Shown here: piece by piece, positions 1 through 17,196 of the stretch | How the letters are laid out: the number at the start of each line of letters is the position of its first letter | Position numbering within the stretch: position 1 is the first letter of the stretch | DNA from: an uncultured Bacilli bacterium | GTDB taxonomy: Bacteria > Bacillota_I > Bacilli_A > RF39 > UBA660 | Assembly (NCBI GenBank): GCA_947598325.1 | Contig: CANQFD010000002.1 | Coordinates: 26,765-90,764, forward strand | Reading direction: 5' to 3' | DNA length: 64,000 nucleotides | The notes under the pieces: generated by a model | Told to the model about the DNA's origin: nothing | Database searches by the model: none | Seen by the model: the letters and a program-made list of their open reading frames with translations, nothing else | Program-made: the position numbers and the translations under genes

Positions 1-3000
1 TTATTTTGCGCTGTTACTGTTATTTTTACATCATTATTTCCTTCTAGTAAGTATGTTGTTCCTTTTATATCTACTTTCGCATTCTCTTCATCTTCTGCGA
101 TTGCTTCTATTTCTATGTTCTCATATTCATATGGTATTTGTACACTATATTCTGTTTTTTCTCTTTCAAATCCTTCTATTTCTTTCTCTGGACTTATTAG
201 TTTTAAACTCTTTAAATAATTATTTGTATTTTCTAATCTTGTTATTTTATATATATACTCTATCTTCTCTCCTAAACTATTTGTTACCTCTATTTTATAA
301 TTATTTATTCCTACTTCTAGTGTATATTTCTCTACTTCTATTCCTTCTTTATATACTTTTACTTTTTGTCCTTCATGTTTCTTTTCTATATTAAATCCTA
401 TTTCTTTTACTTCATATGGTACTGTTATCTCATATTCATATATTGTTTCTTCATATTCTGGTATTTCGCAGCTCTCACATACTTCTTCTATTCCTGTTAT
501 TTGTACATCCTTTAATGTCTTCTCTCTTGTCTTGTCTTTTTTTACTGTTATTTCATATACTGATGTACTTCCATCTTCTGCTTGTACTGTTAGTCTTATT
601 TCTGTTTCTGTTTCTTTTAATTCATATACTAAATTCTCATTTATTAATTTACTTCTTTCATCATTTAATTCTACTGTTAGTTCTACTTCTTCGTCTGTAT
701 CAAATACTGATAATGTATATTTATATATATCTTTATCAAATGTTGGACTTAATTCTCCTATGCTTGTCTCTAATACCTTTATTCTTGAATCATTTGATAA
801 CTCATGTTTTACATAGATTATATATGTCTTCTCTTCACTCTTATCTGCACTTGTTACTTTTATTATATATCTATTTTCTCCCTCTGTTATCTCTAACTCT
901 TCTTGTTTCTCTACTGTCGCATGCGCATCCTCTGTTATTACTGTGAAGTTATATTTTGTTACTTTTGTTACATCTTCTGGTACCGTTAACTCATATGATC
1001 CTTCATCTAACTGTTTTAGTGTCCCTACATTTGATGTTATACTTCTTATTCTTGTATTATTACTTTCTTTTCTTGTTACTACTACTGTGTATGTTCTTGT
1101 TATTCCGCCTTTACTTCTTACTACTATCTTATATGTATTTTCTCCTACTTGTAATTCTTTTTCTCCTGTTCCTATTACTTCACTTGTTATTATCTCTGCC
1201 GCTGCTTGTATTGTTATTCTCTCTACTTCATTTCCTACTTCTACTTCGTACCTTAATTCTTCTTTCTTAAATTCTGGACTTAATTTCCCTTCACTTACTG
1301 TTAGGCTTCTTAAATATGTATTACTATAACTTTGTCTATTTACTAGTAGTTTATATGTTGTTTTATCTATTCCATTACTACTTGTTGATATTATTTTTAC
1401 TTCATTTAGTCCTACCTCAAAGTCCTTATTTCCTTCTACTACATATGTACTTCCTGGATCTAATTTACTTATTATTAATTCTAATTCTGTTACTTCATTA
1501 TCTACTACTACTGTATATTCTAATGTATTACTTTCAAATGCTTTATCTAGATAATAATTCTTTACTTCTATATTCTTTAATAATGATGTTACTGGATCCT
1601 TTCTTGTTACTACTATTTTATATGTCTTTACTTCTCCATGTTCTGCGGTTACTACTACTTCTATATTATTTTTTCCTTGTTTTAATTCTCTTATTCCGTC
1701 TCCATCTATTCTTGCATTTTCTTCTTCTGTTTCTGCGATTATCTCTATACTTTCTTCTTCATATTCTACTTCTAATGTGTATTCTGTTCTTTCACTCGTA
1801 AATTCTGGTGTTATTTCATGATCCTTTACGCTTAAGTTCCTTAAATTATTATTCCTTGAACCTAATCTCGTTACTATTATCTTATATTCTCTTGTTTCTC
1901 CTTTTTCACTCGTTACTCCTACTATTAACTCGTTTTCTCCTTTTACTAGGCTCCTCATTCCTCTTCCTGTTACTTGTGCGTACATACTCTCTGCTTCTGC
2001 TTTTATTATTACACTATTTACTTCGTTTTCTACTGTTAGTCTATATTCTTGTATCCCTTTTTTAAATTCTGGTGTTATTTTTTCTCCTTCTATCTCTAAA
2101 CTCTTTAAATAGTTATTTTCTGATTCTTCTTTCGTTACTTTTATTGTATACGTTCTTGTATGGTTTTTATCCGCACTTGTTACTATGATTTTTATCTCAT
2201 TTTGACCTAATTTTAATCCTTCATTTCCTTGAATCTCTATACTTTCTTCTTCATGCATTTTCTCTATTATTATCTCTAGATTCTCTTCTTTTGTTGTTAT
2301 ACTATATTCTTCTTTATCTGGGTTAAATGCTTCATTTAATGTATGATTCTTTACTTCTATTTTCTTTAGCCTTGTCTCTGTACTTTCTTTTCTTGTTACT
2401 ACTACTTGATAATCTTTTTCTTGTCCTTTTGTATTTTTTACTCTTATTTCTATTACATTTTTCCCTTGTTTTAAATTATATTCTCCTATTCCTGTTACTT
2501 CATTTGTTTCATCTTCTGCGCTTGCATTTACCTGTACTTTCTCTACCTCATATTCTACTTCACATTCGTAGTATTGTTTTCCTTTCTCATACACTATATT
2601 ACAGCTTGTTACATCTAACGTTTTTAAATCTAAACTATTTTCTGATTCTTCTTCTTTTGTTACTTTTATTTTATATGTCTTTTCTTCTCCATTTTCTGCC
2701 GTTACTATTATATTTATTTCTGCTTCGTTATTTTCTCCTATTTCTGTTCCTGTTATATTTACCTCTGATGTTTTCTTCTCTGGTTCTGCGATTACATTTA
2801 ATTCTCTTACTTCATTTGGTACTTTTGCTGTGTATTCTAATCTCATTGGATCAAATTTTGGCTCTATTATTCCTTCTTTTAATAGTAAGAATGACAAATT
2901 CGCATTATCTCCTTCGTCTCTTATTACTCTTATTACATACTCTTCCTCTGTTACTCCATCTTCTGCTTTTGTCCTTAATATTATCCTATTTTCTCCATAG

Positions 3001-4860
3001 TTTAGTTTATATTTCCCATTTCCTATTACTTGTGTTGTCTTACTTCTTGCGTATCCTGTTATTTGTATCTCTTCTTCTGTTTCTCCTAGGTTTACTGTAT
3101 ATTCTTTTTCTTCACTACTAAATTCTGGTGTTAATTCTCCTTTATTTACTACTATATTACTTAACAGTGCGTCACTATTATATTCTCTATACACTTTTAT
3201 TTTATATGTCCTTTGTTTTCCTGTCTCACTTGTTACTACTACTTGTATCTCATTTTCTCCACTTGCTAGTGTATATTTCCCTAATCCTATTACACTTGAA
3301 AGTTCATCTTCTTTTTCTCCTTCTACTATTATACTCTCTACTTCATTTCCTAATCTTACTTCGTATTCTTCTCCTTCTCGTGTAAATCCTGGACTTAATT
3401 CTCCTTCACTTACTTCTAAGCTCTTTAAGTAATTTATATCTGATCCTTCTTTTGTTACTACTATTATGTATTCTCTTTCTTCTCCATTTTCTGCCGTTAC
3501 TATTAATCTTACTACGTTCTCTCCTATTTTGAAATTTCCATTACCTATTACTCTTACTTTTGAGGTTTCTTTTTCTGGTGTATAGCTTAATGTTAATTTC
3601 TTTACATATGGATTTACTTGTATTGTATAGTTTCCTTCTTCTTTTTCAAATGGTTCATTAAATTCGCCTTCTTCTGCGCTTAATTCACTTAGATAATTAT
3701 TTGATGATTTCTCTCTTGTTATCATTATTGTATATGTCTCTGTACTTCCATCTTCTGCGGTTGTTAATACTTTTACTTCATTTATTCCTGTTCTTAATTC
3801 TTTTTCTTTATTTATTATTTCTTGTAATTTTGTTGTTCCTTCCATTGTTACATTTGTTGTTCCGGCTTGAGCTACCACATCTATTTGTACTCTTTCTATT
3901 TCATTTGGTACTGTCAATGTATATTTTGTTTGTATATCTTCAAACTCTGGACTTAATGTGTATATTTCTTCATTATTCCTTACCTCTAATTTATCTAATA
4001 ATGCATTACCATTTGACATCCTATATACTGTTAATATATAACTTCTTACTTCTCCATTTTCTGCTGTTACTTCTATCTCTACTATATTATTTCCTACTTG
4101 TAAATCCTTATCTCCTTTTATTTCATATCTTGCTTTTTCATCATCTAATTCTACTTTTAATTTTATCTCTGTTACACTATTTTCTACTTTAAATGCGTAC
4201 TCTGTGATTAAATAGTTGAATCCTATGTCTATACTTGGCTCTACTACCTCTAGGTTATCTATATAGTTATTTCCTGTCATATCTCTTGTGATCTCATATC
4301 TATATACTGTTCTATGCTGTCCATCTTCACTTGTTACCTCTATTGTTATTACATTGTCTCCTCCATTTAATCTTGTTACTCCATCTCCTATTACTTCTTC
4401 ATATTCATGTTTCTTATCTACTGTAAACTCTAAATCTCTTATTCCACTTGGTACTGTCATATAATATGTTGTTGTATCTTCATCAAATTCTTTTGGATCT
4501 ATTTCACAGTATCCTTCATATCCTTCACATACACTTGGCATTAATCCTGTGATTGTTATATCTCTTGCTTTACTTTCACTACTCTTCTCTCTTTTTGTCT
4601 TTATTTTATATATCCTTATTTCTCCACTTTCACTTGTTACTGTTATTTCAAATGTTGTTTCTCCTCCTGGTACTTTTTGCTTCCCTAAGCCTTCTATTTT
4701 TGCTGTATCATCTGATGGTCTTGCGCTTATCTCTATCTCTGTTTCATCTACTTCTAATTCTAATTCATATTCTTCTGTTAGTGGATTAAATTCTGGACTT
4801 AACTTTCCTTTATCTGTCCCTAAATATATTAAGTAGTTATCTCTTGATAATAGCTTCTCT
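1..4860 (-). repeat. Array of ~18 diverged ~85-95-aa cadherin-like beta-sandwich repeats within the giant ORF
   Basis: The translated motif recurs roughly every 270 nt. Examples: NNYLKSLEIEGEKITPEFKKGIQEYRLTVENEV...ELIVGVTSEKGETREYKIIVTR; TYLRSLTVSEGKLSPEFKKEELRYEVEV; NNYLSELSAEEGEFNEPFEKEEGNYTIQV. Repeat-start markers on the plus strand (ctttaaataattat and similar) occur near 215, 1310, 1850, 2105, 3425, 3690 and 4840. The repeat count is by eye. Confidence 0.7.
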
Positions 4861-7800
4861 GGTGTGATTCTTGCGTATCCATCTCCTTCATTTCCTGTCA
4901 TTACATCTGTTCCATCATGTGTTGGCATATTTACTACTTCAGTTCCTTTTTTAGTTGTCCAAGAGTATCCATCTCCATCTATCATTTGTGTATCTGTAAA
5001 ATACATTTCACTATAATGAATACTATCTCCTGTATATTCTATATTTTCTTCAGTTGATTCTTTTGTTACTGCATTACTTCCTTCATGGCCTGAAATGTAT
5101 GATACTCCTCCATAGTCTGGAGATCCACCATAGTAGCCTCCACCGCCACCTCCTAGAGGTGTCCTATTATCTGAACTACTGCCTCCTAATCCGAATTTAT
5201 ATATATGAGAATCCACTGTAGAACGTCCTCCTGCATAACCTGCTTTTGTGTAACTTCCTCCAGATCCTCCAGCAGCAATCATTATTCTAGATTTTAAGGA
5301 ATCAAAATTATCCCATGCTCCATCTTCTGAAACAAATAATCTTACATCTGTGGCACCTCCGCCACCTCCAGCGGGATCTTGTGCATCATTTGAATCATTA
5401 CCAGCTGTTCCTCCGCCGTTATAGCCCCCTGTTCCTCCTTTGTAATTTTCTACTAGTCCACCTTCTTCACCTTGACCTCCAGTGAATATGTATAACGTTT
5501 GGTTCTGTGCAAGGCTTATAATTCCAGAAGTGTAGCCACCTTTTCCGCCATTTCTTGTTGATGACCAATAGTATCTTCCAAAACCACCTTGAGCTCCCCA
5601 TAGTTCTATTTTATATTTTGCTGCAAAAGGTGCTATAAATGTTTGATATTCATTTTTATATTTAAATGTATATTCTTCTTCCATTTCTATTTTTTTATAA
5701 TTTATTGTATATATTGTTGTTTCTGAATGAGGCTCTGTTACTGTTATTATTACTTGTCCTGAATCTTCTTGAATGTACCTATTTCCTTCAATTGTTACTT
5801 TTGCTTCATCATCAAATGTTCCTGTTGTTATATTTAAATCTATTTCATTTGATAAAATTTCTACGTTATATGTTTCTTCTAATGGATGAAATTCTGGATT
5901 TAAATCAGTTTCGTATCTTTCTATTTCTAGTTTTGATAATTTGCTTGAATGTGTTCCTTCTGGTAGTTCTTTTCTTGTTGCATTTACAGTATATGTTCTT
6001 ATATCTCCTGATTCACTTGTTACTGATATTGTTACTTGTTTTGTTTCACCAAACTCAATATCATATTTTTCTAAACCTGTTACGCTTGCTTTTTCATCAG
6101 ATAATTCTCCTGTTAATGTAAAGTGCATATCATACATATCTAAACTTAAATTATATTCTTCTATTGTTGGATCAAATGTTGGACTTAGTGTTCCATAACT
6201 TGATGATAAACTTGATAAGTAATTATCTTTAGATAGTATATTCTCTGGTGTAATTTTTGCGTATCCATCTCCTTCATTTCCTACTTGTGATTCTTCTCCA
6301 TTATATGTTGGTTGATTAACTACTTTATCTCCTTTTTTAGTTGTCCAAGAGTATCCATCTCCATCTATCATTTTGGTATCTGTGAAATATAATTCACTAT
6401 AATGAATACTGTTACCAGTATGTGTTATCTTTTCTTCAGTTGATTCTTTATCTATAGAATTACTTCCTTCGTGACCTGATATATATGATGTTCCTCCATA
6501 TCCTGCGGCACTATCTGATTTTCCAGAACTTCCGCCATAATATCCGCCACCTCCGGCGCCTGAACCTCCTGTAAAGACTAAACCATTTTCTCCTATACCA
6601 AATTTATATACATTTGTATCAAAAGTTGACTTTCCACCTGAGTATCCTTCTCTATTATAAGCACCACCGCCACCTCCGGCAGCGACCATAATTCTTGATT
6701 TCAATGAATCAAAATTATCCCAATCTCCTGTTTCATTTATGTCTAAACGGATATCTGTAGCTCCTCCTGATCCTCCACCTGGATCTGGGTGAGAGTCTCC
6801 TGCATAGCTTGAATCATCTCCACCTTTTCCGCCACCATTATATCCACTATTTCCTCCAATATACTTGATTTCATCTCCACCATCATGTCCTTTTCCACCG
6901 ACAAAGACATATAGAATTTTACCTTTATTTAGTCTAATGTTTCCTGATGTATAGCCTCCATATCCGCCTCTTTCTAAGGTACTTAAATCTTTTAGACCTG
7001 CTCCACCTTGAGCCCCCCAAAGTTGTATTTTATATATTCCTGTTGCTGGTACAATAAATTTTTGATAGTTTCCTTTATAACTAAATTCATATTTAGAATC
7101 TAACTCTATTTTTCTATAGTTAATTGTATACACTGTTTGGGCTACATTTGATTCTGTTACTGTTATTGTTATTTGTCCAGAATCATTTTTCATATATTTA
7201 TTACCTTGAATTTTTACTTTTGCTTCACTATCAAATGTCTCTGTTTTTATATTTAAATCTATTTCACTCGATAAAATTTCTACATTATATGTTTCCTCTA
7301 ATGGTTGAAATTCTGGATTTAATTGAGCTTCATAGCCCTCTATTTCTAGTTTTGATAGTTTGCTTGAATGAATTCCTTCTAATAACTCTTCTCTTGTTAC
7401 ATTTACCTTGTATGTTCTTATATCTCCTGATTCACTCATTACTGATATTATTATTTCTTTTGTTTGACCTGGTTCTACCGCATATCTACCTAAACCTGTA
7501 ACACTTGATTTTTCATCTGATAATTCTCCTGATAATGTAAAATGTGTATCATACATACCTAAGTTTAAATTATATTCTTCTATTAATGGATTAAATTCTT
7601 GATTTAACTTTCCATAATTTGATGATAATTTTTTTAAATAATTATCTTTTGAAAGAACTACAAAAGATGTTATTTTTGCATATCCATTTCCTAAATTTCC
7701 AGTCATTACATTTGTTTCATCATGTGTTGGCATTTCTTCATTTCCTGATTTCATAATTGTATCAGTAAAAATCATATTACTATAATGATATGAACATTCT

Positions 7801-9182
7801 ATATTTTCTGTTCCTGTTTCACATTCAGCTTTTGGTGTTGGATCTGTTTGCGATGTTATTGCTACACTTCCTTGATGCCCTGATATATATGATGAACCGC
7901 CTGCTCCACCATTACCTGTAGAACTATTGGCACCGCCAGCTCCTCCATAGTAGCCGCCGCCACCGCCGCCACCATAATTTTCGCCGGTACCTCCTAAGCC
8001 AAATTTACCATTTTTATTATCTAAATTAGAATAAGATTTACCTCCTGCAGTTTGTGTCCCTCCTGTTGGTTGTTGATTTCCTGCACCATTTGCACCAGTA
8101 AGACCTCCTGCATAACCACCTTTATATCCAGAAGTATAACTGTTATATCCGCCACCGCCTGCTGCTACCATAATCCTACTAGATAGTGATGATGAATCAT
8201 TCCAGTCTCCATTCGATATTCTTACATCTGTAGCTCCACCGCCAGATGTACAATAACTACCACAAGAGCCACCACCATTAAAAGTTGCACTAGCTGAAGA
8301 TAATGATTGACCAACATAAAAATATAATTTTTGACCTGCTTCTAAATCTATCTTACCTGAAGTATATGCGCCTTTACCTGCCAAAGATGTATGAGTACTT
8401 CCTGATGCTCCCCATAGTTCTATCTTATATATTCCTAATGTCGGAGCAATAAATTCTTGTTCATTTGCTTCAAAATCAAAAGTAGTTGAAACACCCTCTA
8501 CAAGTTGAAGCTTATCTGAATTCTTACTATTTAACTCTATTTTTTTATAATTAATTGTGTATGTTGTAGGTGCTTCGTTAGATGCTGTTACTATTATTTT
8601 AACAATTCCCGAATTGTCTTTTATATACTTATTTCCCTCAATTGTTACTTTGGCATCTTTATCAAATGTTTCTGTTTTTATATTTAAGTCTATTTCGTTT
8701 GGCAAAATATCTACGTTGTATATTCCTTCTAATGGATGAAATTCTGGTTCTAAGTCAGTTTCATATCCTTCTATTTCTAGTTTTGATAATTTACTAGAAT
8801 GATTTGCAGTAGTAATTTGATCTCTTGTCGCAGTTATGGTATACGTTGTTTCTTCACTAGAATCATTACTTAATGTTATTAATATTACTTGTGATTGTCC
8901 TGCATCTACTTCATATTTTCCAAGTCCACTTATTTTTATATTTTCATTTGCTGTCGCAGTTAATGTAAAACTTACATCATATTCGCCTAATTTTAATTCA
9001 TATGCTTTTTGATTAGAACTAAAAGATGGACTTAGTTCCCCATGACTTGTTTCAAGTGTATTTAATAATAAACTACTTTCATCTGCTTTTGCCGAATTTA
9101 TGTTCACGCAAAATAGTGTTAATGATACCATTAACACTACAAATATAAAACTAAGTTTTGTGCGCACATTTTTTAGTTTCAT
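1..9182 (-). CDS. Giant secreted or cell-surface repeat protein, first >3,060 codons (3' end of gene lies beyond window start). Layout: signal peptide, then 3 x [two cadherin-like beta-sandwich repeats + glycine-rich module], then ~18 more cadherin-like repeats
   Basis: The reverse complement from 9182 reads ATG AAA CTA AAA AAT GTG..., giving MKLKNVRTKLSFIFVVLMVSLTLFCVNINSAKA/DESSLLLNTLETSHGELSPSF. An RBS (GAAGGAAG) lies 6 nt upstream. I hand-checked the frame (plus-strand triplets starting at positions divisible by 3) at 3-59, 1260-1320, 2580-2640, 3660-3720, 4500-4560, 4920-4980 and 6780-6840 and found no TTA/CTA/TCA. The frame is still open at position 3. It is absent from the ORF track only because no stop lies in the window. 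Confidence 0.9.
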   Translation of the reverse strand, partial: MKLKNVRTKLSFIFVVLMVSLTLFCVNINSAKADESSLLLNTLETSHGELSPSFSSNQKAYELKLGEYDVSFTLTATANENIKISGLGKYEVDAGQSQVILITLSNDSSEETTYTITATRDQITTANHSSKLSKLEIEGYETDLEPEFHPLEGIYNVDILPNEIDLNIKTETFDKDAKVTIEGNKYIKDNSGIVKIIVTASNEAPTTYTINYKKIELNSKNSDKLQLVEGVSTTFDFEANEQEFIAPTLGIYKIELWGASGSTHTSLAGKGAYTSGKIDLEAGQKLYFYVGQSLSSASATFNGGGSCGSYCTSGGGATDVRISNGDWNDSSSLSSRIMVAAGGGGYNSYTSGYKGGYAGGLTGANGAGNQQPTGGTQTAGGKSYSNLDNKNGKFGLGGTGENYGGGGGGGYYGGAGGANSSTGNGGAGGSSYISGHQGSVAITSQTDPTPKAECETGTENIECSYHYSNMIFTDTIMKSGNEEMPTHDETNVMTGNLGNGYAKITSFVVLSKDNYLKKLSSNYGKLNQEFNPLIEEYNLNLGMYDTHFTLSGELSDEKSSVTGLGRYAVEPGQTKEIIISVMSESGDIRTYKVNVTREELLEGIHSSKLSKLEIEGYEAQLNPEFQPLEETYNVEILSSEIDLNIKTETFDSEAKVKIQGNKYMKNDSGQITITVTESNVAQTVYTINYRKIELDSKYEFSYKGNYQKFIVPATGIYKIQLWGAQGGAGLKDLSTLERGGYGGYTSGNIRLNKGKILYVFVGGKGHDGGDEIKYIGGNSGYNGGGKGGDDSSYAGDSHPDPGGGSGGATDIRLDINETGDWDNFDSLKSRIMVAAGGGGGAYNREGYSGGKSTFDTNVYKFGIGENGLVFTGGSGAGGGGYYGGSSGKSDSAAGYGGTSYISGHEGSNSIDKESTEEKITHTGNSIHYSELYFTDTKMIDGDGYSWTTKKGDKVVNQPTYNGEESQVGNEGDGYAKITPENILSKDNYLSSLSSSYGTLSPTFDPTIEEYNLSLDMYDMHFTLTGELSDEKASVTGLEKYDIEFGETKQVTISVTSESGDIRTYTVNATRKELPEGTHSSKLSKLEIERYETDLNPEFHPLEETYNVEILSNEIDLNITTGTFDDEAKVTIEGNRYIQEDSGQVIITVTEPHSETTIYTINYKKIEMEEEYTFKYKNEYQTFIAPFAAKYKIELWGAQGGFGRYYWSSTRNGGKGGYTSGIISLAQNQTLYIFTGGQGEEGGLVENYKGGTGGYNGGGTAGNDSNDAQDPAGGGGGATDVRLFVSEDGAWDNFDSLKSRIMIAAGGSGGSYTKAGYAGGRSTVDSHIYKFGLGGSSSDNRTPLGGGGGGYYGGSPDYGGVSYISGHEGSNAVTKESTEENIEYTGDSIHYSEMYFTDTQMIDGDGYSWTTKKGTEVVNMPTHDGTDVMTGNEGDGYARITPEKLLSRDNYLIYLGTDKGKLSPEFNPLTEEYELELEVDETEIEISARPSDDTAKIEGLGKQKVPGGETTFEITVTSESGEIRIYKIKTKREKSSESKARDITITGLMPSVCEGYEGYCEIDPKEFDEDTTTYYMTVPSGIRDLEFTVDKKHEYEEVIGDGVTRLNGGDNVITIEVTSEDGQHRTVYRYEITRDMTGNNYIDNLEVVEPSIDIGFNYLITEYAFKVENSVTEIKLKVELDDEKARYEIKGDKDLQVGNNIVEIEVTAENGEVRSYILTVYRMSNGNALLDKLEVRNNEEIYTLSPEFEDIQTKYTLTVPNEIERVQIDVVAQAGTTNVTMEGTTKLQEIINKEKELRTGINEVKVLTTAEDGSTETYTIMITREKSSNNYLSELSAEEGEFNEPFEKEEGNYTIQVNPYVKKLTLSYTPEKETSKVRVIGNGNFKIGENVVRLIVTAENGEEREYIIVVTKEGSDINYLKSLEVSEGELSPGFTREGEEYEVRLGNEVESIIVEGEKEDELSSVIGLGKYTLASGENEIQVVVTSETGKQRTYKIKVYREYNSDALLSNIVVNKGELTPEFSSEEKEYTVNLGETEEEIQITGYARSKTTQVIGNGKYKLNYGENRIILRTKAEDGVTEEEYVIRVIRDEGDNANLSFLLLKEGIIEPKFDPMRLEYTAKVPNEVRELNVIAEPEKKTSEVNITGTEIGENNEAEINIIVTAENGEEKTYKIKVTKEEESENSLDLKTLDVTSCNIVYEKGKQYYECEVEYEVEKVQVNASAEDETNEVTGIGEYNLKQGKNVIEIRVKNTKGQEKDYQVVVTRKESTETRLKKIEVKNHTLNEAFNPDKEEYSITTKEENLEIIIEKMHEEESIEIQGNEGLKLGQNEIKIIVTSADKNHTRTYTIKVTKEESENNYLKSLEIEGEKITPEFKKGIQEYRLTVENEVNSVIIKAEAESMYAQVTGRGMRSLVKGENELIVGVTSEKGETREYKIIVTRLGSRNNNLRNLSVKDHEITPEFTSERTEYTLEVEYEEESIEIIAETEEENARIDGDGIRELKQGKNNIEVVVTAEHGEVKTYKIVVTRKDPVTSLLKNIEVKNYYLDKAFESNTLEYTVVVDNEVTELELIISKLDPGSTYVVEGNKDFEVGLNEVKIISTSSNGIDKTTYKLLVNRQSYSNTYLRSLTVSEGKLSPEFKKEELRYEVEVGNEVERITIQAAAEIITSEVIGTGEKELQVGENTYKIVVRSKGGITRTYTVVVTRKESNNTRIRSITSNVGTLKQLDEGSYELTVPEDVTKVTKYNFTVITEDAHATVEKQEELEITEGENRYIIKVTSADKSEEKTYIIYVKHELSNDSRIKVLETSIGELSPTFDKDIYKYTLSVFDTDEEVELTVELNDERSKLINENLVYELKETETEIRLTVQAEDGSTSVYEITVKKDKTREKTLKDVQITGIEEVCESCEIPEYEETIYEYEITVPYEVKEIGFNIEKKHEGQKVKVYKEGIEVEKYTLEVGINNYKIEVTNSLGEKIEYIYKITRLENTNNYLKSLKLISPEKEIEGFEREKTEYSVQIPYEYENIEIEAIAEDEENAKVDIKGTTYLLEGNNDVKITVTAQN
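4861..5675 (-). repeat. Glycine-rich module 3 of the giant ORF
   Basis: Translates as EYTFKYKNEYQTFIAPFAAKYKIELWGAQGG...GDGYARITP. Gly/Ser/Tyr-rich runs appear on the plus strand as ccacc/gccacc tracts. It shares near-identical stretches with module 2, for example ttttttagttgtccaagagtatccatctccatctatcatt. Confidence 0.75.
6247..7092 (-). repeat. Glycine-rich module 2 of the giant ORF
   Basis: Translates as YEFSYKGNYQKFIVPATGIYKIQLWGAQGGAG...NGGGKGGDDSSYAGDSHPDPGGGSGGATDIRL...VAAGGGGGAYN...GGGGYYGGSSG...SYISGHEGS...GDGYAKITP. Confidence 0.75.
7661..8490 (-). repeat. Glycine-rich module 1 of the giant ORF
   Basis: Translates as TTFDFEANEQEFIAPTLGIYKIELWGASGS...GGGATDVRISNGDWNDSSSLSSRIMVAAGGGGYN...GENYGGGGGGGYYGGAGGANSSTGNGGAGGSSYISGHQGS...GNGYAKITSF. 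Confidence 0.75.
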
Positions 9183-9380
9183 ACTTATCTTCCTTCGTGT
9201 ATTATTACGATATTAATTATATCATTTTTTGACATATAAAATCAATATTCTTGCTTTATTTTATATGATTTTTGCATAAAAAAAATAAACTACTTGCTAA
9301 TCATTAATAATTTAGTTTCCTGTATTGTTTTTTACTTTATGCAAATTATTAAAAATACTTAATAAAATCTTTACTTATGT

Positions 9381-9417
9381 AAAAAAAAGATAGTATCTAA
9401 AGAAAAATACTATCTTT
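9381..9417 (-). terminator. Rho-independent terminator after the 291-aa gene, separating it from the giant ORF
   Basis: Hairpin AGATAGTAT-N10-ATACTATCT at 9388-9415, followed on the minus strand by a U-run (plus-strand A-run 9381-9387). Confidence 0.7.
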
Positions 9418-10293
9418 TTAATAATTTTTCATATTTATAGTATATGGATTTAATTGTGATCCATCACCATTTTCTATCACAACATTATTTTTAAGTTTGA
9501 TGACATATTTAATACATGCCCCTTCATTTGATGCTGGTATATATATATCTGAATTTACACTATCTATTATTTCATAATCATTTTCAGTTTTTATCCAAAT
9601 ATTTTTATTGCCTTTGATATATGTATCATCATTTATAAAACTATTAATATATAAATCTTTTGTTATTACATCTAACTTAGATGCCATTATTTTTTTCATA
9701 TATACATCATATTTATCATTATATGTTGTTGATAAATTTGATTTAATATTATTCTTTTTAATTGTTTTATCACAATTTTCTTTTATTATATACATATATC
9801 CCATTTTATCAACTTTAATTATTCTATATATTTCTTGATTAAAACTTATATAATTTTTAGCTTCTGTGCCTTTATAGATATATTCATCATTTTCATAATA
9901 AATTCCATCTTTAGAATTTAATTTTTTAACTAATTCTAAAATTGTACTACCACTTATATAATATAATTTTATTTTTCCATTCTCATTAGATACTATTACT
10001 TTTGTATCATCATCATATTTTTTTCCTGTAAGTGGATTTTTTACATCTTTACTTATATATCCACTTTCTATTAATTCACCTACTGTATACTCAGTAATAG
10101 TATTAGATACATTACTTACATCAGCTGAATATTTATTTTCAGCACTTTTTAATATTCTATCTTTAGATTCATTAAAAGAAATATATCTAGACTGTTCTAC
10201 AGAATTTAATATCATTGGACATATTATAAATATTAGAATTAATATTATAACAACCGAAGTTATACATAATATTATTTTATTATTTTTACTCAA
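9418..10293 (-). CDS. Hypothetical N-terminally membrane-anchored extracellular protein
   Basis: ORF with one N-terminal hydrophobic helix (IILCITSVVIILILIFIICPMIL). The post-helix segment looks pseudopilin-like but there is no G-F-T-L-x-E prepilin motif. It overlaps the upstream gene by 4 nt. Confidence 0.6.
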   Translation of the reverse strand: MSKNNKIILCITSVVIILILIFIICPMILNSVEQSRYISFNESKDRILKSAENKYSADVSNVSNTITEYTVGELIESGYISKDVKNPLTGKKYDDDTKVIVSNENGKIKLYYISGSTILELVKKLNSKDGIYYENDEYIYKGTEAKNYISFNQEIYRIIKVDKMGYMYIIKENCDKTIKKNNIKSNLSTTYNDKYDVYMKKIMASKLDVITKDLYINSFINDDTYIKGNKNIWIKTENDYEIIDSVNSDIYIPASNEGACIKYVIKLKNNVVIENGDGSQLNPYTINMKNY

Positions 10294-12101
10294 TTAGACC
10301 CCTCCTGTTTCAATTCATATATTTTTTTTCCACTATAATTATAATAATTATCTGATGCAACTATATAATTTTCATAAACATCTACAGAGTCTTTAACTTT
10401 TATAGATAGTTCTTCCATACTATCCAAATTTACCAATAAAGTCTCATCCTTGTATTTAGCCATTATAATTGGATATTTAGTAGATAAAATATCAAAAGAA
10501 TCATACACTGGTTTTAACATTATTTTACCATCTGAATTGATTATACCATATTTATTATTTACAGAAAATATGAATAATTCCTGTTTATTTATACTTTTAA
10601 TATTTTTAAATAAATCCTCATCTAATAAAATAATTTCATCATATATAGTTTTAATAACTTCTTTACCATCATTACGTAAAACTCCATAATTTCCATCATT
10701 ACAAACAACAGCATATCCATAACTAGAAAAATCTGACGTTTCTTCATAGTCTTTTTCTGTTATTTTTTTACCATTTTTTGAAATAAAATTATATTTATTA
10801 TCTTTTGAATAAACTTTCATATATCCATTTACAAATGTATCATCAACAGGTTTTATATCACTAAATTCTCCAAATTTTTTATTTGGATTCATAATAGTAT
10901 ATTCATCTTTATTTGTATTAAAATTATGTGTCATCTGAAGAACCACACCATCTGAATAATTATATTCATTGTTAGTATTTGAATTAATAACTTCTCTTGT
11001 TTTTAAATCAATATAATCCTTTTCAGTATTATCTTTTATACCAATTGCAATATTCGAATCAACATCCTCAACTCTAATTCTTTTATAGTTTGACGATTCA
11101 AAAACAACTTTATCATCACTTATGATTAAATATTTATTATTTTCATCATCTTTCTTTGATTTAATATAAAAAACATTATTATCTAAAACATTAATATCAT
11201 CCAATGTATATTTATAAACTTCTTTACCAGTTTTAATATTTACAATCGTTGATGATGAATTTATTTTTATTTTAGCATATTTATCTTTTGATTTTGATGA
11301 TGATGGTTCTACTACTATGTTTCTATCATCTACTTCGTCAACGGTATATGTATATATTTCCTTACCATCACTATTCATTATCCCCATTGTTTCATCTCTT
11401 ATAAATAAGAATAGTCCAGATTTTGAATAACTTAAATTATCATATTTAAAACTAGTTATATCTTTTAAATTTTCATCAAGTAAACCCTGTTTTAATCCCT
11501 TATCTGTAAATTTACTTGCTATATACCTCTTACCATATAAATTTATATAAAAATATGTACCAAATTGTGCTTCTAATTTAGCTCTACCATTTAATATACC
11601 AGATAAATTATTATAATTTTTTACTATTGCATATCCTTTATAAAAATCAGTTCCAGATATATATTTTGGTTTAGCCATAACCTCGCCATCACTATTTATA
11701 TAACCTACTTTGTTATTTTCTTCAATTCTTATTAAGTTAATTCCTTCTGCATTTGTATTTGATATAAATAAATATAAGCCAAGGATTGAAACAAAAACAA
11801 ATGCAAATATAGGAAGTGCAGATGATCCGACCTTAATTTTTTGATATAAATTATCAAATTTATTATTTTCTGTTTTTAATTCATCTAAGTTAATAAAATC
11901 TTTAGCACTAAAATTTTCGTCTGGTATATAACTTTTTATAGGCAAAATTTCTTTTTCTTCTTCAACAGGTAAAGCAATTGCTTCAAACGATTTTGTATCA
12001 TCTAAATTACTAACTTCTTCTTTTTTATTTGAATCAAAAGAGGGTTCAAATGGTAAGTCATCATTTTCTTCCTCTGAAAATGGCAACTCTTCTAGATTCA
12101 T
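10290..12101 (-). CDS. Membrane-anchored WG/KWG-type beta-propeller repeat protein
   Basis: Acidic N-terminus and one TM helix (ALPIFAFVFVSILGLYLFI). Repeated motifs follow: GYINSDGEVMAKPKYI, GIMNSDGKEIYTY, YGVLRNDGKEVIKTIYDEI, YGIINSDGKIMLKPVYDSF. These are typical of WG-containing repeats. Confidence 0.65.
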   Translation of the reverse strand: MNLEELPFSEEENDDLPFEPSFDSNKKEEVSNLDDTKSFEAIALPVEEEKEILPIKSYIPDENFSAKDFINLDELKTENNKFDNLYQKIKVGSSALPIFAFVFVSILGLYLFISNTNAEGINLIRIEENNKVGYINSDGEVMAKPKYISGTDFYKGYAIVKNYNNLSGILNGRAKLEAQFGTYFYINLYGKRYIASKFTDKGLKQGLLDENLKDITSFKYDNLSYSKSGLFLFIRDETMGIMNSDGKEIYTYTVDEVDDRNIVVEPSSSKSKDKYAKIKINSSSTIVNIKTGKEVYKYTLDDINVLDNNVFYIKSKKDDENNKYLIISDDKVVFESSNYKRIRVEDVDSNIAIGIKDNTEKDYIDLKTREVINSNTNNEYNYSDGVVLQMTHNFNTNKDEYTIMNPNKKFGEFSDIKPVDDTFVNGYMKVYSKDNKYNFISKNGKKITEKDYEETSDFSSYGYAVVCNDGNYGVLRNDGKEVIKTIYDEIILLDEDLFKNIKSINKQELFIFSVNNKYGIINSDGKIMLKPVYDSFDILSTKYPIIMAKYKDETLLVNLDSMEELSIKVKDSVDVYENYIVASDNYYNYSGKKIYELKQEGSN

Positions 12102-12251
12102 ATACTCCCTCCTATCTTCTATAATTATAATATCATATATTTCAAATAAAAAAAAGATATAAAATTTAAAAAAATTATTAACTATTAAATATAAGATAAA
12201 TTTATATTTTATATCTTTAAAATAATTTAATAATTTCTTTTATCTATATAG

Positions 12252-13490
12252 TTACTTTCTATTTAATACACATACACACTCAACATGATAAGTTTGTGGA
12301 AACATATCAAATGCACTTATTTCAATTAATTCATATTTTTCCTTTAATACATTTACATCTCTTGCAAGAGTTACTGGATTACATGATATATAAATTATTT
12401 TTTTTGGTTCTATTTCAAGTATAGACTCTAAACTTTTTTTATCACTTCCGCTCCTTGGAGGATCTAAAACAATTGCATCTACCTTTAATTTTTTTAATTC
12501 ATCTATTTTATTTTCTACTTTTCCACAAATAAACTCCGCATTATTTATATTATTTAAAAGTAAATTATTTTTAGCATCCTTTACTGCATCTTTTACTACT
12601 TCTACCCCTATTACTCTTTTTGCTTTTTTTGACAAAAGCATAGTTATTGTTCCTGTTCCTGAATATAAATCTAATATTAAATCAGATTTATCTATATATT
12701 CAAGTGCTTTATTATAAAGATTTTCAGCTACTACAGAATTAACTTGAAAAAATGATTTAGGTGAAATATTAAACATTAAATTATTTAACTTTTTATTCAA
12801 ACTTAATAACCCGTACACTAATTTATTATTTATATATATACTACTTACACCATCTAATGCTTTAATAAATTTATCTATGTATCCTTCTTTAATATTATCA
12901 AGTGATATCATTATATTATTATCACATACTCTTATCATAACTTCATTTATTTCATTATCTTTATTTTTTTTAATAAATTCTCTAATTTTGATTAGACATT
13001 CATTAATCTTTTCATCTGATATTATGCATCTATCAATATCAATAAGTTCATTAGTTTTTGGTTTATAAAAACCTATTTTATCTTTTTTAACTTTAAATAC
13101 TACTTTATTTCTATAATTAAGAATATTATAACTATTAACTTTTTCTAAATCTATATCTATATTACATATCTTTTTAAAAATAGAAATTATTTTATCTTTT
13201 TTAAATTCTAATTGAGACTCATAACTTTGATGCATCAAATTACATCCACCGCATTCATAAAAAAATGGACATTTTGGGGTTTTTCTATTTTGATTTGCTT
13301 CTTTTACCTCAACTAAATCTCCATAAGCATAATTTTTATAAATTTTTATAATTTTTACATTAACTACTTCATTAGGTAATGCATCATTTACAAAAGTAAT
13401 AATTCCATCAATTAATCCAATTCCCAAACCTTCATTATTTTGTCTTAAAATTTTTGTCTCATAAATTTTATTTACTTCCATAATTTCCAC
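12252..13490 (-). CDS. rlmCD: 23S rRNA (uracil-5)-methyltransferase, RumA/RlmCD family (TRAM + Fe-S + SAM methyltransferase)
   Basis: N-terminal TRAM-like region, Cys cluster CPFFYECGGCNLMH, SAM motif LDLYSGTGTI, and a C-terminal DPPRSG...YISCNP signature. Confidence 0.8.
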   Translation of the reverse strand: MEIMEVNKIYETKILRQNNEGLGIGLIDGIITFVNDALPNEVVNVKIIKIYKNYAYGDLVEVKEANQNRKTPKCPFFYECGGCNLMHQSYESQLEFKKDKIISIFKKICNIDIDLEKVNSYNILNYRNKVVFKVKKDKIGFYKPKTNELIDIDRCIISDEKINECLIKIREFIKKNKDNEINEVMIRVCDNNIMISLDNIKEGYIDKFIKALDGVSSIYINNKLVYGLLSLNKKLNNLMFNISPKSFFQVNSVVAENLYNKALEYIDKSDLILDLYSGTGTITMLLSKKAKRVIGVEVVKDAVKDAKNNLLLNNINNAEFICGKVENKIDELKKLKVDAIVLDPPRSGSDKKSLESILEIEPKKIIYISCNPVTLARDVNVLKEKYELIEISAFDMFPQTYHVECVCVLNRK

Positions 13491-13555
13491 CTTTAAATAT
13501 TATACTATATTTTTATAAAATTTGGATAAACTATTCTTATAAAGGAGTTAAAATT

Positions 13556-14950
13556 ATGGATATAGAAAAAATCAAATTATTTCAGAAATATAACCCTGAT
13601 TTAAAGATTAGAGAACTAAAAAATGATAAAATCAGTATTTATGTGATATATTTTGAAACGTTATGTGATTCATCATCTATTAATGACTTTATATTAAAGC
13701 CAATAAATATGAATATTATAAAAACTATAGATGATATAAAGGATAAGATCCCTAGTGGTAATTTAAAAGATATAACTGATGAAAAAACTCTATATGATAC
13801 TCTTTATAATGGTTTTACTATAGTATGTGTAAAAAATAAATTTATATCATTTGAAACTAAATATCCTCTTGATAGTGGCATTAGTGAAGCATCTAATGAA
13901 AAAGTTATAAAAGGTCCTAAAGATGCATTTACAGAAAATTATCAAAATAATATGGGATTAATTAGAAAAAGAATTAGATCTAAGGATTTAAAGATAAATG
14001 AATATGTAATTGGTACATCAAGTAAAACGAAAGTAGCTTTATTTTATGTAGATGGTATTGTAAATAAAGATTTAGTAAATAAAATAGAAAAAAAGTTAAA
14101 AAATATGACTATGGATTATGTTGCTAATAGCAACTATATAACTGAAAATTTAGAAAAAAAAGATTATATGTTACCAACTAATTTAATGACTGAAAGACCA
14201 GATCTTGCTAGTTTTCATCTTATGGAAGGAAGAATAATAATATTAGTTGAAAATACACCACAAGTAATAATATTACCAGCATTTTTTAATGATTTTATAA
14301 AAACCATAGACGATTACTATCAAAATCCTAAAAATGTATCCGTTACAAGAATAATCAGAGTAATTGCACTTATAATTGCAATTTTTACTCCAGCAATTTA
14401 TGTTGCACTTTCCACATTTAATCAAGAAACTTTACCAACAGGAGTTCTTATAAATTTCTCTATTCAAAGAGGAGGAGTTCCATTTCCTACGATTGTTGAA
14501 GCTATTGTTATGTGGTTAATATTTGAAGTATTAAGAGAAGCTGATACTAGAATACCATATGTAATGGGATCATCAATGTCTATTGTAGGAGCACTTGTTG
14601 TTGGACAAGCTGCTGTTGATGCAGGTATGATAACTCCTATTATGATAATAATAATTGCAGTTTCATCAGTTGCATCCTTATTATTTAATGATAATGATAT
14701 TGTTAATGCAATAAGAATATGGAAATTAATTTTCTTACTTTTTGCTGCATTCACTGGTTTATATGGTGTATTTATTGCAAGTTTACTTTTCATAACTAAA
14801 TTATGTTCTATGGAACCATATGGTTTTGATTATACAATTCCAAATGCACCATTTAATAAAAATGAACAAAAAAATAACATTATCTTAACTAAAAAATATA
14901 AATTGAATAAAAGAAATCCATTCTTAACAAAAAATATAGATAGGAGATAA
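13556..14950 (+). CDS. Spore germination protein, GerA (A-subunit) family
   Basis: Family-typical length and motifs (TENYQNNMGLIRKRIR, ERPDLASFHLMEGRIIILVENTP). Membrane C-terminal half. First gene of an A-C-B operon. Confidence 0.85.
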   Translation: MDIEKIKLFQKYNPDLKIRELKNDKISIYVIYFETLCDSSSINDFILKPINMNIIKTIDDIKDKIPSGNLKDITDEKTLYDTLYNGFTIVCVKNKFISFETKYPLDSGISEASNEKVIKGPKDAFTENYQNNMGLIRKRIRSKDLKINEYVIGTSSKTKVALFYVDGIVNKDLVNKIEKKLKNMTMDYVANSNYITENLEKKDYMLPTNLMTERPDLASFHLMEGRIIILVENTPQVIILPAFFNDFIKTIDDYYQNPKNVSVTRIIRVIALIIAIFTPAIYVALSTFNQETLPTGVLINFSIQRGGVPFPTIVEAIVMWLIFEVLREADTRIPYVMGSSMSIVGALVVGQAAVDAGMITPIMIIIIAVSSVASLLFNDNDIVNAIRIWKLIFLLFAAFTGLYGVFIASLLFITKLCSMEPYGFDYTIPNAPFNKNEQKNNIILTKKYKLNKRNPFLTKNIDRR

Positions 14951-14953
14951 CAA

Positions 14954-16090
14954 ATGAAAAAAATATTTATTATTTTATTAATATTTTTAGTAAGTGGTTG
15001 TTATAACTACAAAGAATTAAATCAAATATCAATAGTTAGTTCTATAGCAATTGATAAAGCTGATGATGAATATAAAGTAAGTGCACAAATTATGAATGCT
15101 AAAGAAGATGAAGAAAGTGAAAATAGTCAAGTAATAGTATATACCGAAAATGGAAAAACAATTAATGAAGCACTTAGAAAAATGATTTTAAAAGCCCCTA
15201 ATAATTTATATGGTGGACATTTAAGTAAACTTGTCTTATCTGAAGAAGTTGCTAAAGAAGGTATTATAAATGTCTTGGATTTATTCCAAAGATTAACTGA
15301 AGTAAGAAACGAATTTACTATCACAGTTGCTAAAGGTATTGATGCATCTGATGTTATTAAAGTTATGACCTCCCCTGAATCAATTCCAGCAGAGTATGTT
15401 ACAAATTCTCTAAAATCTGCAGATGTTTCAAGTGCTCTTACTTATTCTACTAAACTTGATGAATTTGTATCTCTTTATTTAAAAGATTATATAGATCCTG
15501 TCATTGCAATAATAGAAGTAAAGGACTATGAAAAAAAAGGTACAACAATGGATAACACATCCACAACTGATCCAATATCAAAATTAGTCCTTGGAAATAT
15601 TGCTATTACAAAAGATGGTAAACTTGAAAAATATTTAACTGAAAATGAAACAATAGGATACAATTTTGTTAAGAACCAAGTTCAAGAAATGATTATACCA
15701 GTTAAATGTGATAATAATAGCTATTCTTCTATATCTATACTTGAAAATAAGACTAAAACTAATGTAGATAGAGTTAATAATAAATATAAAGTTAATATTA
15801 ATATTACATCAAGTGCTGTAATTTCAGAATATAATTGTGTGAATAATATTACAAATGAAAAAAACATAAAAAAACTAGAAAAAGAAACTGAAAAAAAGAT
15901 AAAATATTACGTTAATAAATCAATTAATGCACAAAAGGAATCTAAAGGAAGATTTCTAGGACTTGAAAGAACTATATATTTGGACTATCCAGAATATAAA
16001 AATGAAGATTTTGATATAAAAGTTAATGTAAGTGTAAATTTATCAAGAAAAGGCGAAACAAGAAATTCCAGTAAAGGAGCTAAAAGATAA
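14954..16090 (+). CDS. Spore germination lipoprotein, Ger(x)C family
   Basis: Lipobox LVSGC at the N-terminus. Starts 4 nt after the A subunit. The middle region is Ger(x)C-like. Confidence 0.8.
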   Translation: MKKIFIILLIFLVSGCYNYKELNQISIVSSIAIDKADDEYKVSAQIMNAKEDEESENSQVIVYTENGKTINEALRKMILKAPNNLYGGHLSKLVLSEEVAKEGIINVLDLFQRLTEVRNEFTITVAKGIDASDVIKVMTSPESIPAEYVTNSLKSADVSSALTYSTKLDEFVSLYLKDYIDPVIAIIEVKDYEKKGTTMDNTSTTDPISKLVLGNIAITKDGKLEKYLTENETIGYNFVKNQVQEMIIPVKCDNNSYSSISILENKTKTNVDRVNNKYKVNINITSSAVISEYNCVNNITNEKNIKKLEKETEKKIKYYVNKSINAQKESKGRFLGLERTIYLDYPEYKNEDFDIKVNVSVNLSRKGETRNSSKGAKR

Positions 16091-17169: not shown

Positions 17170-17196
17170 TAATATTTTCTTTATAATTTTTAAATC

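Follow-up and report, generated by a model that had tools for sequence, protein, structure and literature searches.

The 64,000-nucleotide (nt) stretch analyzed here (hereafter the window) is taken from contig CANQFD010000002.1 of an uncultured Bacilli bacterium (assembly GCA_947598325.1), and its first position falls within a minus-strand gene that encodes a protein of 4,455 amino acids (aa), referred to below as the giant protein. We found that this gene is real and intact, and that its product links a signal peptide, three modules of two cadherin-like (Cad) domains and one glycine-rich domain (GRD) of the ALK/LTK type, 31 tandem Cad domains, a Big_2 domain, an X module, and a type-I-like dockerin at the C terminus. 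Our preferred interpretation, to which we assign a probability of roughly 0.55, is that of a long secreted surface fiber that would be docked to the cell by its C terminus, carry the GRDs as binding heads, and act as a long-reach adhesin expressed from a separately transcribed gene. The protein adds one more member to a populous but uncharacterized family of giant surface proteins, already recorded in the databases, from uncultured Bacilli of the gut.

An intact gene of 4,455 codons

The preliminary description of this DNA had reported, from reading by hand, an open frame over positions 1-9182 of the minus strand with a canonical gene start. Translation of the reverse complement gives 3,060 codons with zero stops; the protein begins MKLKNVRTKLSFIFVVLMVSLTLFCVNINSAKA|DE, exactly as described, and the proposed ribosome-binding site (RBS) is in place, with GAAGGAAG at 9196-9189, 6 nt before the ATG at 9182-9180. 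The composition of the coding strand (A 46%, T 23%, G 21%, C 10%) predicts a stop probability of 0.091 per codon, or about one stop in every 11 codons, and the chance of 3,060 stop-free codons in DNA of this composition is about 1e-127. The remaining five frames of the same segment carry 71-477 stops each. Strong coding periodicity is evident in the G+C content at codon positions 1, 2, and 3 (0.45, 0.36, and 0.13, respectively), and the plus-strand open reading frames (ORFs) called across 53-8739 are antisense shadows of the giant gene. The description had also anticipated a protein larger than its visible part and the largest gene in the window. Both hold: the parent contig adds 4,186 nt up to a TAG, bringing the total to 4,455 codons, all free of stops, of which the window holds the first 3,060, and the runner-up ORF in the window has only 741 aa. 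In the numbering of contig L001, the gene occupies 10001-23368, with the window edge at 19182 and the out-of-window part at 19183-23368.

The gene is absent from the ORF track of the window because that track omits ORFs running off the end of the source. The accompanying warning that automated pipelines needing an in-window stop would miss it applies to this track but not to the public annotation, in which NCBI and ENA call the gene on the full contig. A homology search recovered the recorded product (P0001, 4,455 aa) with 100% identity over 100% of the query, and the identical protein is present on five contigs, the longest of 225 kb. The practical lesson is that an edge rule hid the largest gene of the window, and that a frame read by hand recovered it.

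Misassembly is common for highly repetitive giant genes in metagenomes, and the closest species-level relative has a product of a different length (6,102 aa); these two points could be taken to mean that the ORF is an assembly artifact or a pseudogene, for instance a chimeric collapse of repeats from several genes. We consider this to be extremely unlikely, given the clean start and stop signals at the two ends of an uninterrupted frame, the presence of the identical protein on five NCBI/ENA contigs, and the colinearity with that same relative at 76% identity over aa 40-4449. Moreover, the repeats are diverged and hence easily assembled: the stalk repeats share a mean pairwise identity of 33% (maximum 54%), and the three modules are only 51-65% identical to one another, because of which we regard the modules as old duplications rather than assembly repeats. 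Pseudogene and misassembly were accordingly rejected on the strength of the diverged repeats, the codon periodicity, and the identical product on five contigs.

Domain architecture of the giant protein

The N terminus is a Sec-type signal peptide whose cleavage site is best placed, by the AXA rule, as given in Table 1. A hydrophobic N-terminal region is likewise present in 106 of 120 homologs; here and below, per-homolog counts refer to the best 120 of the 437 homologs detected at E ≤ 1e-10. A lipoprotein was considered and rejected, the signal peptide having no lipobox. Beyond the signal peptide there is no hydrophobic segment in the protein (maximum 19-mer hydropathy 1.1), which is very acidic, with 14% Glu and a net charge of -313.

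Pfam scans were run on the in-window 3,060 aa and on the C-terminal 315 aa, and aa 3061-4140 were covered by our own hidden Markov model (HMM) of the Cad repeat. The Pfam family PF12733 (Cadherin-like) is matched with 482.3 bits against a cutoff of 24.2, over 17 stretches of the in-window part, and the unit that it describes is in this protein a repeated beta-sandwich of ~85-90 aa. Iteration of an HMM on the giant protein itself resolved 37 Cad domains, each with an E value between 1e-16 and 1e-28. Classical cadherin (PF00028) is not reported in the Pfam scans; the term "cadherin-like" refers to a separate, bacterial family of beta-sandwich domains and does not denote classical cadherins. Cadherin-like, ALK_LTK_GRD, Big_2, and Dockerin_1 are the only interpretable matches in these scans; those to DUF4878, RBD_SIN1, and PHL lie below the Pfam cutoffs, and no NCBIfam model matches any part of the protein.

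The glycine-rich modules and their ALK/LTK-type fold

The three ALK/LTK-type GRDs in the N-terminal third, which had gone unnoticed in the preliminary description, are the most distinctive parts of the protein. PF12810 (ALK_LTK_GRD) matches three stretches with 383.8 bits against a cutoff of 24.5, the best of them spanning positions 8-242 of the 243 in the model. A single GRD recovers no match among PDB sequences with phmmer. A profile of 27 sequences, drawn from the giant protein and its homologs, recovers the human ALK ectodomain (7MZY, 7LRZ) and Caenorhabditis elegans SCD-2 (7LIR) with E = 5e-9 over profile positions 13-209 of 290. The AlphaFold2 (AF2) model of GRD2, computed from the 27-sequence alignment, reached a predicted local distance difference test (pLDDT) score of 94.7 and a predicted template-modeling (pTM) score of 0.93. 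Beta strands are found at its two ends, and its long Gly-rich stretches are confidently modeled yet receive no DSSP-assigned structure; these stretches would fit polyglycine-II helices. When this model was compared with the PDB using Foldseek, the top 21 matches were all GRDs of ALK, LTK, or SCD-2 (probability 1.00, E = 3e-10 to 3e-6); the tail tip of mycobacteriophage Bxb1 (1.3e-3) and the fiber of cyanophage Pam3 (0.1) came next. Homology between these modules and the ALK-type GRD is thereby established at the level of the domain.

The solved ALK/LTK GRDs (7MZY, 7LRZ, 7N00, 7NX1, 7LIR) belong to the same Pfam family as the modules of the giant protein, and the matches are nearly full length. 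The profile match nevertheless ends at position 209 of 290, so that the C-terminal ~80 residues of the bacterial GRD differ, and the surrounding architecture is of another kind: the GRD occurs three times, embedded between Cad domains, in a protein that has no EGF-like domain, transmembrane segment, or kinase (neither an EGF-like nor a kinase domain appears in the Pfam scans, and aa 3061-4140 are tandem Cad by our own HMM). What the giant protein has in common with the ALK/LTK receptor tyrosine kinases is therefore the GRD alone; it falls outside that family, and an ALKAL-like ligand for its GRDs is not expected.

A second set of relatives is found among phages. GRD1 and GRD2 match three phage protein families of unknown function (phrog_7388, phrog_1589, and phrog_5811) with E values of 2e-40 to 8e-31. 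In the fibers of phages Pam3 (gp24) and S16 (gp38), a unit of TNF-like and glycine-rich parts forms the receptor-recognizing end and resembles the ligand-binding domain of ALK (PMC9608196). The solved fiber tips (Pam3 gp24, 7YPX; Salmonella phage S16 gp38, 6F45; Bxb1, 9D93) share their fold class with the GRD and likely also a role, that of a distal binding head on a long fiber. The parallel has its bounds, however: the structural matches of the GRD to solved phage proteins are weak, the giant gene is chromosomal and does not lie in a prophage, and phage fibers are trimers that need chaperones, whereas nothing in the giant protein indicates trimerization. By analogy with the animal receptors and the phage tips, we reasonably infer a binding role for the GRD modules.

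The same phage connection raises the question of a more aggressive function. An antagonistic or predatory contact device, in which phage-like GRD heads bind other bacteria to deliver or position lytic activities, would account for the occurrence of GRDs in phage proteins, for their likeness to domains of phage tail tips and fibers, and for the Peptidase_M23 domain in some members of the family, one of which is named a murein endopeptidase in its source (P0080, P0093, P0100, P0103, P0115). Such a device is very unlikely in the present case, as no enzymatic or toxin domain was found in the giant protein, and its neighborhood is made up of housekeeping genes, without phage, secretion-system, or immunity genes. 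A prophage tail fiber was rejected on the same ground of a housekeeping gene context.

A dockerin-like C terminus in place of a wall anchor

For the part of the protein beyond the window, the preliminary description had led us to expect an LPXTG, SLH, cell-wall-binding, or choline-binding anchor. This expectation failed: neither P0001 nor any of the 120 homologs has an LPXTG motif or a hydrophobic 18-mer in its last 60 residues, the Pfam scans report no SLH, CW_binding, or choline-binding repeats, and the tail, which reads ...LLKINSLNNIQSGQ at its end, is a Big_2-X-dockerin cassette. The cassette forms the extreme C terminus of 73 of the 120 homologs, including P0014 and P0030, whose genes adjoin cohesin genes, and precomputed matches to PF00404 (Dockerin_1) are present in about half of the homologs.

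The single tail of the giant protein recovers solved type-I dockerins over both repeats with phmmer (E = 6e-6 to 1e-3), and a profile of 24 family tails recovers more than 25 solved dockerins (E = 3e-13 to 1e-5), including those of CelS, Xyn10B, and the Ruminococcus bromii amylosome enzymes Amy16 and Amy12. In the AF2 model of the tail (pLDDT 93.3), a beta-sandwich is followed by the X module, which is small and of alpha/beta type, and by three helices (176-186, 196-200, and 210-220); this helical part superimposes on the Clostridium thermocellum dockerin 4fl4_G with a template-modeling score (TM-score) of 0.84 and a root mean square deviation of 1.5 Å over 65 columns in Foldseek. Dockerins carry two 12-residue EF-hand-like Ca loops (D1, N/D3, D5, N/D9, D12), each followed by a helix; the first loop of the giant protein, DINEDGKINTND, is canonical, and the second is taken up below.

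Giant repeat adhesins of Gram-positive bacteria, such as Ebh of Staphylococcus aureus, SasG/Aap, and the streptococcal Rib-domain proteins, are anchored through LPXTG and sortase or through a C-terminal membrane segment. The giant protein has the general design of these adhesins, with a signal peptide, putative binding regions toward the N terminus, and a long stalk of tandem beta-sandwich or Ig-like domains that would carry those regions outward from the cell surface. It departs from them in possessing a dockerin rather than an LPXTG motif or membrane segment, in the family of its repeats (PF12733), and in its GRD head. Sortase anchoring of the MSCRAMM type is found neither in the giant protein nor in any of the 120 homologs.

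A family of giants in gut Bacilli

The best 120 homologs are ~2,200-5,300 aa long, with 0-8 GRDs and 11-40 Cad domains per protein, and the layout that they share comprises a signal peptide, 1-8 Cad-Cad-GRD modules, 11-40 Cad domains, and the Big_2-X-dockerin tail. Of the 118 that bear a GRD, 115 have half or more of their Cad repeats on the C-terminal side of the last GRD. A HMMER search with the GRD profile among 1.84 billion cluster representatives returned 16,890 matches at E ≤ 1e-3, 10,578 at ≤ 1e-10, and 3,150 at ≤ 1e-30, many of which are giants, with lengths of up to 7,775 aa and up to 12 GRDs. The only names given to these proteins in the databases are "cadherin-like beta sandwich domain-containing protein" and "hypothetical." Literature searches on PF12810 and PF12733, on cadherin-like domains with dockerins, on non-cellulosomal cohesin-dockerin adhesins, and on giant surface proteins of the gut turned up no publication about this family; a preprint on giant genes of Omnitrophota was set aside, as it concerns different proteins.

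Rumen, rabbit gut, and human gut are the metagenomic sources of the relatives, whose hosts are uncultured Bacilli with small genomes. The nearest at the species level is the 6,102-aa protein mentioned above, from a rabbit-gut metagenome-assembled genome (MAG) labeled "uncultured Bacilli" (L002), with 5 GRDs and 43 Cad domains. Its gene adjoins rplM-rpsI, a genomic position different from that of P0001, and there is no synteny between the surroundings of the giant gene and the region upstream of this relative. Giants of other gut Bacilli, for example those in a MAG labeled Bacilli bacterium and in Candidatus Coprovivens, have the same architecture as the protein of the window, but they stand in tandem arrays of paralogs or in clusters with the partner genes described in the next section, whereas the copy in the window, with 3 GRDs and 37 Cad domains, stands alone beside the S10 operon.

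Several side observations concern the spread of the family. Some relatives carry two or three giant paralogs of 4,000-4,900 aa head to tail, and these arrays take up more than 40 kb of a small genome in some of them. In several genomes the giant gene or its cluster lies beside ribosomal or replication genes (the rpsJ operon, rplM-rpsI, rpsF-ssb-rpsR, rplI-dnaB, and parAB), which may reflect origin-proximal, highly expressed regions, or simply the small size of the genomes. Certain members have acquired extra domains, namely Peptidase_M23 and CarboxypepD_reg (one such member being the source-named murein endopeptidase), FAIM1-like, or HL_N-beta, and the family scaffold appears to carry different heads in different lineages. 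Finally, a homolog of 33% identity is encoded on a contig (L003; CAYJPP010000001.1) binned as "uncultured Muribaculaceae" (Bacteroidota), which could be a case of misbinning or of cross-phylum transfer.

Putative cohesin-bearing partners of the giants

By harvesting the neighbors of giant genes on homolog contigs, we identified four independent loci (L006/L007, L008/L009, L010, and L012), sampled from the human gut and from other metagenomes, in which a giant gene is followed by a gene for a protein of ~2,170 aa (the mid protein) and then by one of ~500-550 aa (the anchor protein). The mid protein has an N-terminal cohesin-like domain, ~20 Cad repeats, an X module, and a canonical dockerin. 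The anchor protein opens with a signal peptide and an N-terminal cohesin-like domain of ~130 aa; a linker rich in Ser, Thr, and Asn leads to two Cad domains, and a single transmembrane helix is followed by a cytoplasmic tail rich in Lys and Glu. A gene for a ~146-aa membrane protein precedes the giant in three of the four loci (L006/L007, L008/L009, and L010). L012 differs in having a gene of ~149 aa on the downstream side of its cluster. As a side observation, the anchor tails hold one to three copies of a conserved motif without a Pfam match, DDLYDD(I/V)VTKxELIxAIEExxPKKLKMLLxQEExNKLKxELK.

Pfam calls no cohesin in the N-terminal domains of the anchor or mid proteins. The assignment rests on profile matches to the PDB, in which the anchor domain recovers the Clostridium perfringens NagJ cohesin over its full length (E = 7e-5) and the mid domain recovers the cohesins of CipA and ScaC (E = 2.5e-4 and 1e-3, respectively), and on precomputed Pfam Cohesin (PF00963) matches in 5 of the 157 family members that a full-length anchor alignment returned, several of which lie on contigs equal in length to those of giant homologs; a search with the anchor N-terminal domain alone returned one fragment. 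In addition, the gene that follows that of P0002, the closest relative in the database (45% identical, from rumen), encodes an N-terminal domain that hhalign assigns to the same cohesin-like type with 99.1% probability (E = 1e-18). This linkage in the relatives suggests a non-cellulosomal cohesin-dockerin tether, by which the giants would be mounted, directly or through an adaptor, on a membrane-anchored cohesin.

Known cohesin-dockerin systems (cellulosomes, such as that of C. thermocellum with CipA and its anchoring scaffoldins; the amylosome of R. bromii; and the NagJ/NagH toxin complexes of C. perfringens) share with the giant protein the X module and the C-terminal dockerin, and the adaptor of the relatives, with its cohesin at one end and X-dockerin at the other, and their cell-bound cohesin protein resemble an adaptor scaffoldin and an anchoring scaffoldin. 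There are also differences from these systems: the giant system is without enzymes and carbohydrate-binding modules (CBMs), it has one cohesin per partner rather than arrays, its proposed cargo is a giant fiber, and the anchor of the relatives is a single-pass membrane protein and not an SLH- or sortase-anchored one.

This comparison bears on a further possibility, in which the giant protein is the substrate-capture arm of a cellulosome- or amylosome-like complex, joined to a scaffoldin by its dockerin, with its GRDs and Cad domains binding dietary or host glycans and thereby holding the cell on food particles. It would then serve to acquire nutrients instead of attaching the cell to a host or to other cells. 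The match of the family dockerin profile to cellulosomal and amylosomal dockerins (Amy16 and Amy12 among them) and the rumen, rabbit, and human gut sources of the relatives are in keeping with it. PF12733 domains have reportedly been described, in one paper, in glycoside hydrolases. Yet no glycoside hydrolase or recognized CBM is found in the giant protein or in the cluster genes of its relatives, and besides their cohesins the partners have nothing but Cad repeats and a membrane anchor. We judge a capture arm of this kind unlikely; it largely overlaps with the docked adhesive fiber that we favor and differs from it in target only.

A proposed docked surface fiber weighed against its alternatives

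The docked fiber that we favor would arise as follows. The giant protein would be exported by the Sec pathway and its signal peptide then removed, after which the ~38 beta-sandwich domains in series would form a long, acidic, extended fiber, estimated from the typical size of such domains at ~150 nm. The Big_2-X-dockerin cassette would hold this fiber at the cell via a cohesin on a partner protein, as the linkage in the relatives suggests. Docking at the C terminus would place the three Cad-Cad-GRD modules far from the cell, an orientation in line with the count of 115 in 118 homologs given above, and the GRDs, through the TNF-like plus glycine-rich fold that they share with the ALK/LTK ligand-binding domain and the phage fiber tips, are the most likely binding heads. 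Their target may be the surface of the host, of a food particle, or of another microbe. The preliminary description had spoken of a surface adhesin or a sheath-type protein. The signal peptide and the giant-fiber repeat architecture are what the former would predict, while the sheath role has found no support.

A number of observations weigh against this interpretation. A two-repeat segment of the stalk has no sequence relative in the PDB, and the rod shape is an assumption. The likeness between the GRD and ALK is at the level of fold and profile only, with TM-scores of 0.36-0.48 and identities of 13-22%. The Dockerin_1 match, which spans model positions 2-57 of 57, reaches 22.4 bits and stays just short of the cutoff of 22.9. 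In the second Ca loop, DIIIDDKLDVND, position 3 is occupied by Ile in place of the customary Asp or Asn ligand; because this loop is without the usual acidic or amide residue, cohesin binding by the dockerin may be weakened or single-mode. When the anchor, adaptor, and small proteins of the relatives were used as tblastn queries, no match appeared in the 64-kb window or in the extra 14 kb of L001 past its left edge, and no member of the anchor family is encoded on the 225-kb contig of P0001. Nor is there a Cohesin among the precomputed Pfam labels of the L001 genes or in scans of the three upstream genes, the window ORFs at ~13.5-64 kb lying outside the Pfam scan. The partners of the dockerin, if they exist, must be encoded elsewhere.

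Some of these same points would fit a protein that is released, or that self-assembles into a matrix, coat, or sheath, its slightly degenerate dockerin no longer docking and its role being structural rather than adhesive. The dockerin score just under the Pfam cutoff, the imperfect second loop, and the want of a cohesin partner near the gene by tblastn of the window and L001 are all compatible with such a fate, as are the very acidic composition of the protein and the probable spore-forming habit of the organism, with a GerA operon nearby. We hold it to be improbable, in that Big_2-X-dockerin has been kept at the exact C terminus of 73 of the 120 homologs, some of them beside cohesin genes, the tail models as a good dockerin fold, and the Pfam and NCBIfam scans report neither SLH nor any known coat or sheath domain. 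On balance, we continue to favor the docked fiber with GRD binding heads.

Transcription and genomic context

The giant gene has its own signals on both sides and for this reason is most likely monocistronic. Upstream, a promoter-like site lies ~34 nt before the ATG with 10 of 12 consensus matches; sites of this kind are no more frequent here than shuffling of the AT-rich sequence would give, and the site is consistent with a promoter, short of proof. Farther upstream, an intrinsic terminator (fold of -14.6 kcal/mol, z = -6.6, equaled in 0 of 200 shuffles) separates the gene for a 291-aa protein from the giant gene. A consensus scan missed this terminator because its hairpin has fewer than three G-C pairs. 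At the 3' end of the giant gene, a G+C-containing hairpin with a T-run overlaps the stop codon (L001 23355-23376), beyond which come rpsJ and the S10-spc ribosomal operon, with a long leader and a promoter-like site of their own. The upstream neighbors are genes for a TRAM methyltransferase, a WG-repeat membrane protein, and the 291-aa membrane protein; the S10 operon is the downstream neighbor, and the giant gene stands without a paralog array or cluster.

The two genes directly upstream overlap by 4 nt (ATGA) and end in the strong terminator described above. The 291-aa protein has an N-terminal transmembrane helix and no Pfam match, the 603-aa protein has a transmembrane helix and four WG_beta_rep repeats (E = 8.5e-20), and neither gene has a counterpart beside the giant gene in relatives. 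A germinant-receptor operon (GerA, GerAC, and spore permease) lies further into the window, because of which the source organism, one of the gut Bacilli with 24% G+C, is probably a spore former. The window also contains four tRNA genes, besides which an Rfam scan of the window found no family above the gathering threshold. GC skew over 1-64000 is mostly negative, with the majority of the large ORFs on the minus strand and local reversals at ~14-16 kb and 32-38 kb, where there are plus-strand genes. The giant gene has the most extreme skews of the window (GC skew -0.42, AT skew -0.47) because its coding strand is purine rich, being rich in Glu, Lys, and Gly codons. The positions of all features are collected in Table 1.

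Table 1. Features of the giant gene, its surroundings, and related loci. Positions are those of the window unless a contig handle is given.
Feature	Position	Strand	Basis or remark
Sec-type signal peptide, aa 1-33	9084..9182	-	Basic n-region, hydrophobic core, AKA|DE cleavage motif
Module 1, aa 36-512: Cad aa 50-122, Cad aa 144-216, GRD1 aa 217-512 (nt 7647-8534)	7647..9077	-	Pfam PF12733, PF12810; domain map
Module 2, aa 513-985: two Cad, GRD2 aa 694-985 (nt 6228-7103)	6228..7646	-	Pfam, domain map, AF2, Foldseek
Module 3, aa 986-1447: two Cad, GRD3 aa 1167-1447 (nt 4842-5684)	4842..6227	-	Pfam, domain map
In-window stalk, aa 1461-3060: 17 complete and 1 partial of 31 tandem Cad, period ~88 aa	3..4802	-	Iterated HMM
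Out-of-window remainder: 13 complete Cad and rest of partial copy, to aa 4221	L001:19183-23368		
C-terminal cassette, out of window: Big_2 aa 4222-4291; X module ~aa 4295-4385 (~90 aa); dockerin aa 4387-4442			
RBS GAAGGAAG	9189..9196	-	6-nt spacer before ATG 9182-9180; read from sequence
Promoter-like site: TTGATT, 18-nt spacer, TG-extended TATAAT	9216..9245	-	~34 nt upstream of ATG; 10/12 consensus matches
Intrinsic terminator of upstream 291-aa gene: 15-bp hairpin and U-run	9381..9419	-	RNA fold
Two genes directly upstream of giant gene	9418-12101	-	4-nt overlap (ATGA)
GerA/GerAC/spore-permease operon	13556-17169	+	
tRNA Gly-TCC	27407-27480	-	
tRNA pair Cys-GCA and Gly-GCC	33160-33309	+	
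tRNA Arg-CCT	43902-43978	-	
rpsJ and S10-spc operon beside giant gene	L001:23586-33368		
Other ribosomal/replication genes beside giant gene or cluster	L002:3079-3983; L008:690-1551; L010:5660-6652, 29794-31547		
Giant-mid-anchor cluster	L006:25490-33606; L008:22783-30917; L010:21683-29696; L012:19521-27704		
Giant followed by start of mid-type gene only	L013:24242-25699		
Anchor C termini with tail motif	L006:33200-33603; L008:30500-30914; L010:29400-29693; L012:27200-27701		
Head-to-tail giant paralogs	L011:1-34799; L014:272-24389; L013:1-24120		L011: Ca. Coprovivens MAG GCA_051891735.1
Family members with extra domains			Among homologs listed: P0080, P0093, P0100, P0103, P0115; P0007, P0009, P0012 etc.

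Implications

Two aspects make this family worthy of attention. First, its members carry repeated modules homologous to the ligand-binding domain of ALK and LTK, a fold whose other known occurrences are in animals and in a small number of phage fibers. Second, the dockerin tail is genetically linked in relatives to a cohesin adaptor and a membrane anchor, which points to a non-cellulosomal mounting of adhesive fibers. The two can be joined in a more tentative proposal, which we offer as a possibility rather than an expectation: a hitherto undescribed, non-enzymatic cohesin-dockerin "daisy chain," in which a single-pass membrane protein bearing one cohesin would hold a ~2,170-aa piece with a cohesin at one end and X-dockerin at the other, and this in turn a GRD giant of 4,000-6,000 aa. 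If this were true, the gene of the window would encode a cargo that stands by itself, its partners being located in other parts of the genome, and these bacteria would display surface fibers several hundred nanometers long that bear a ligand-binding fold of the ALK/LTK and phage type. The assembly principle of the cellulosome would then have been reused for an adhesive appendage, and the GRDs of bacteria and phages would be the obvious ones with which to compare the ALK/LTK ligand-binding domain when its origin is considered.

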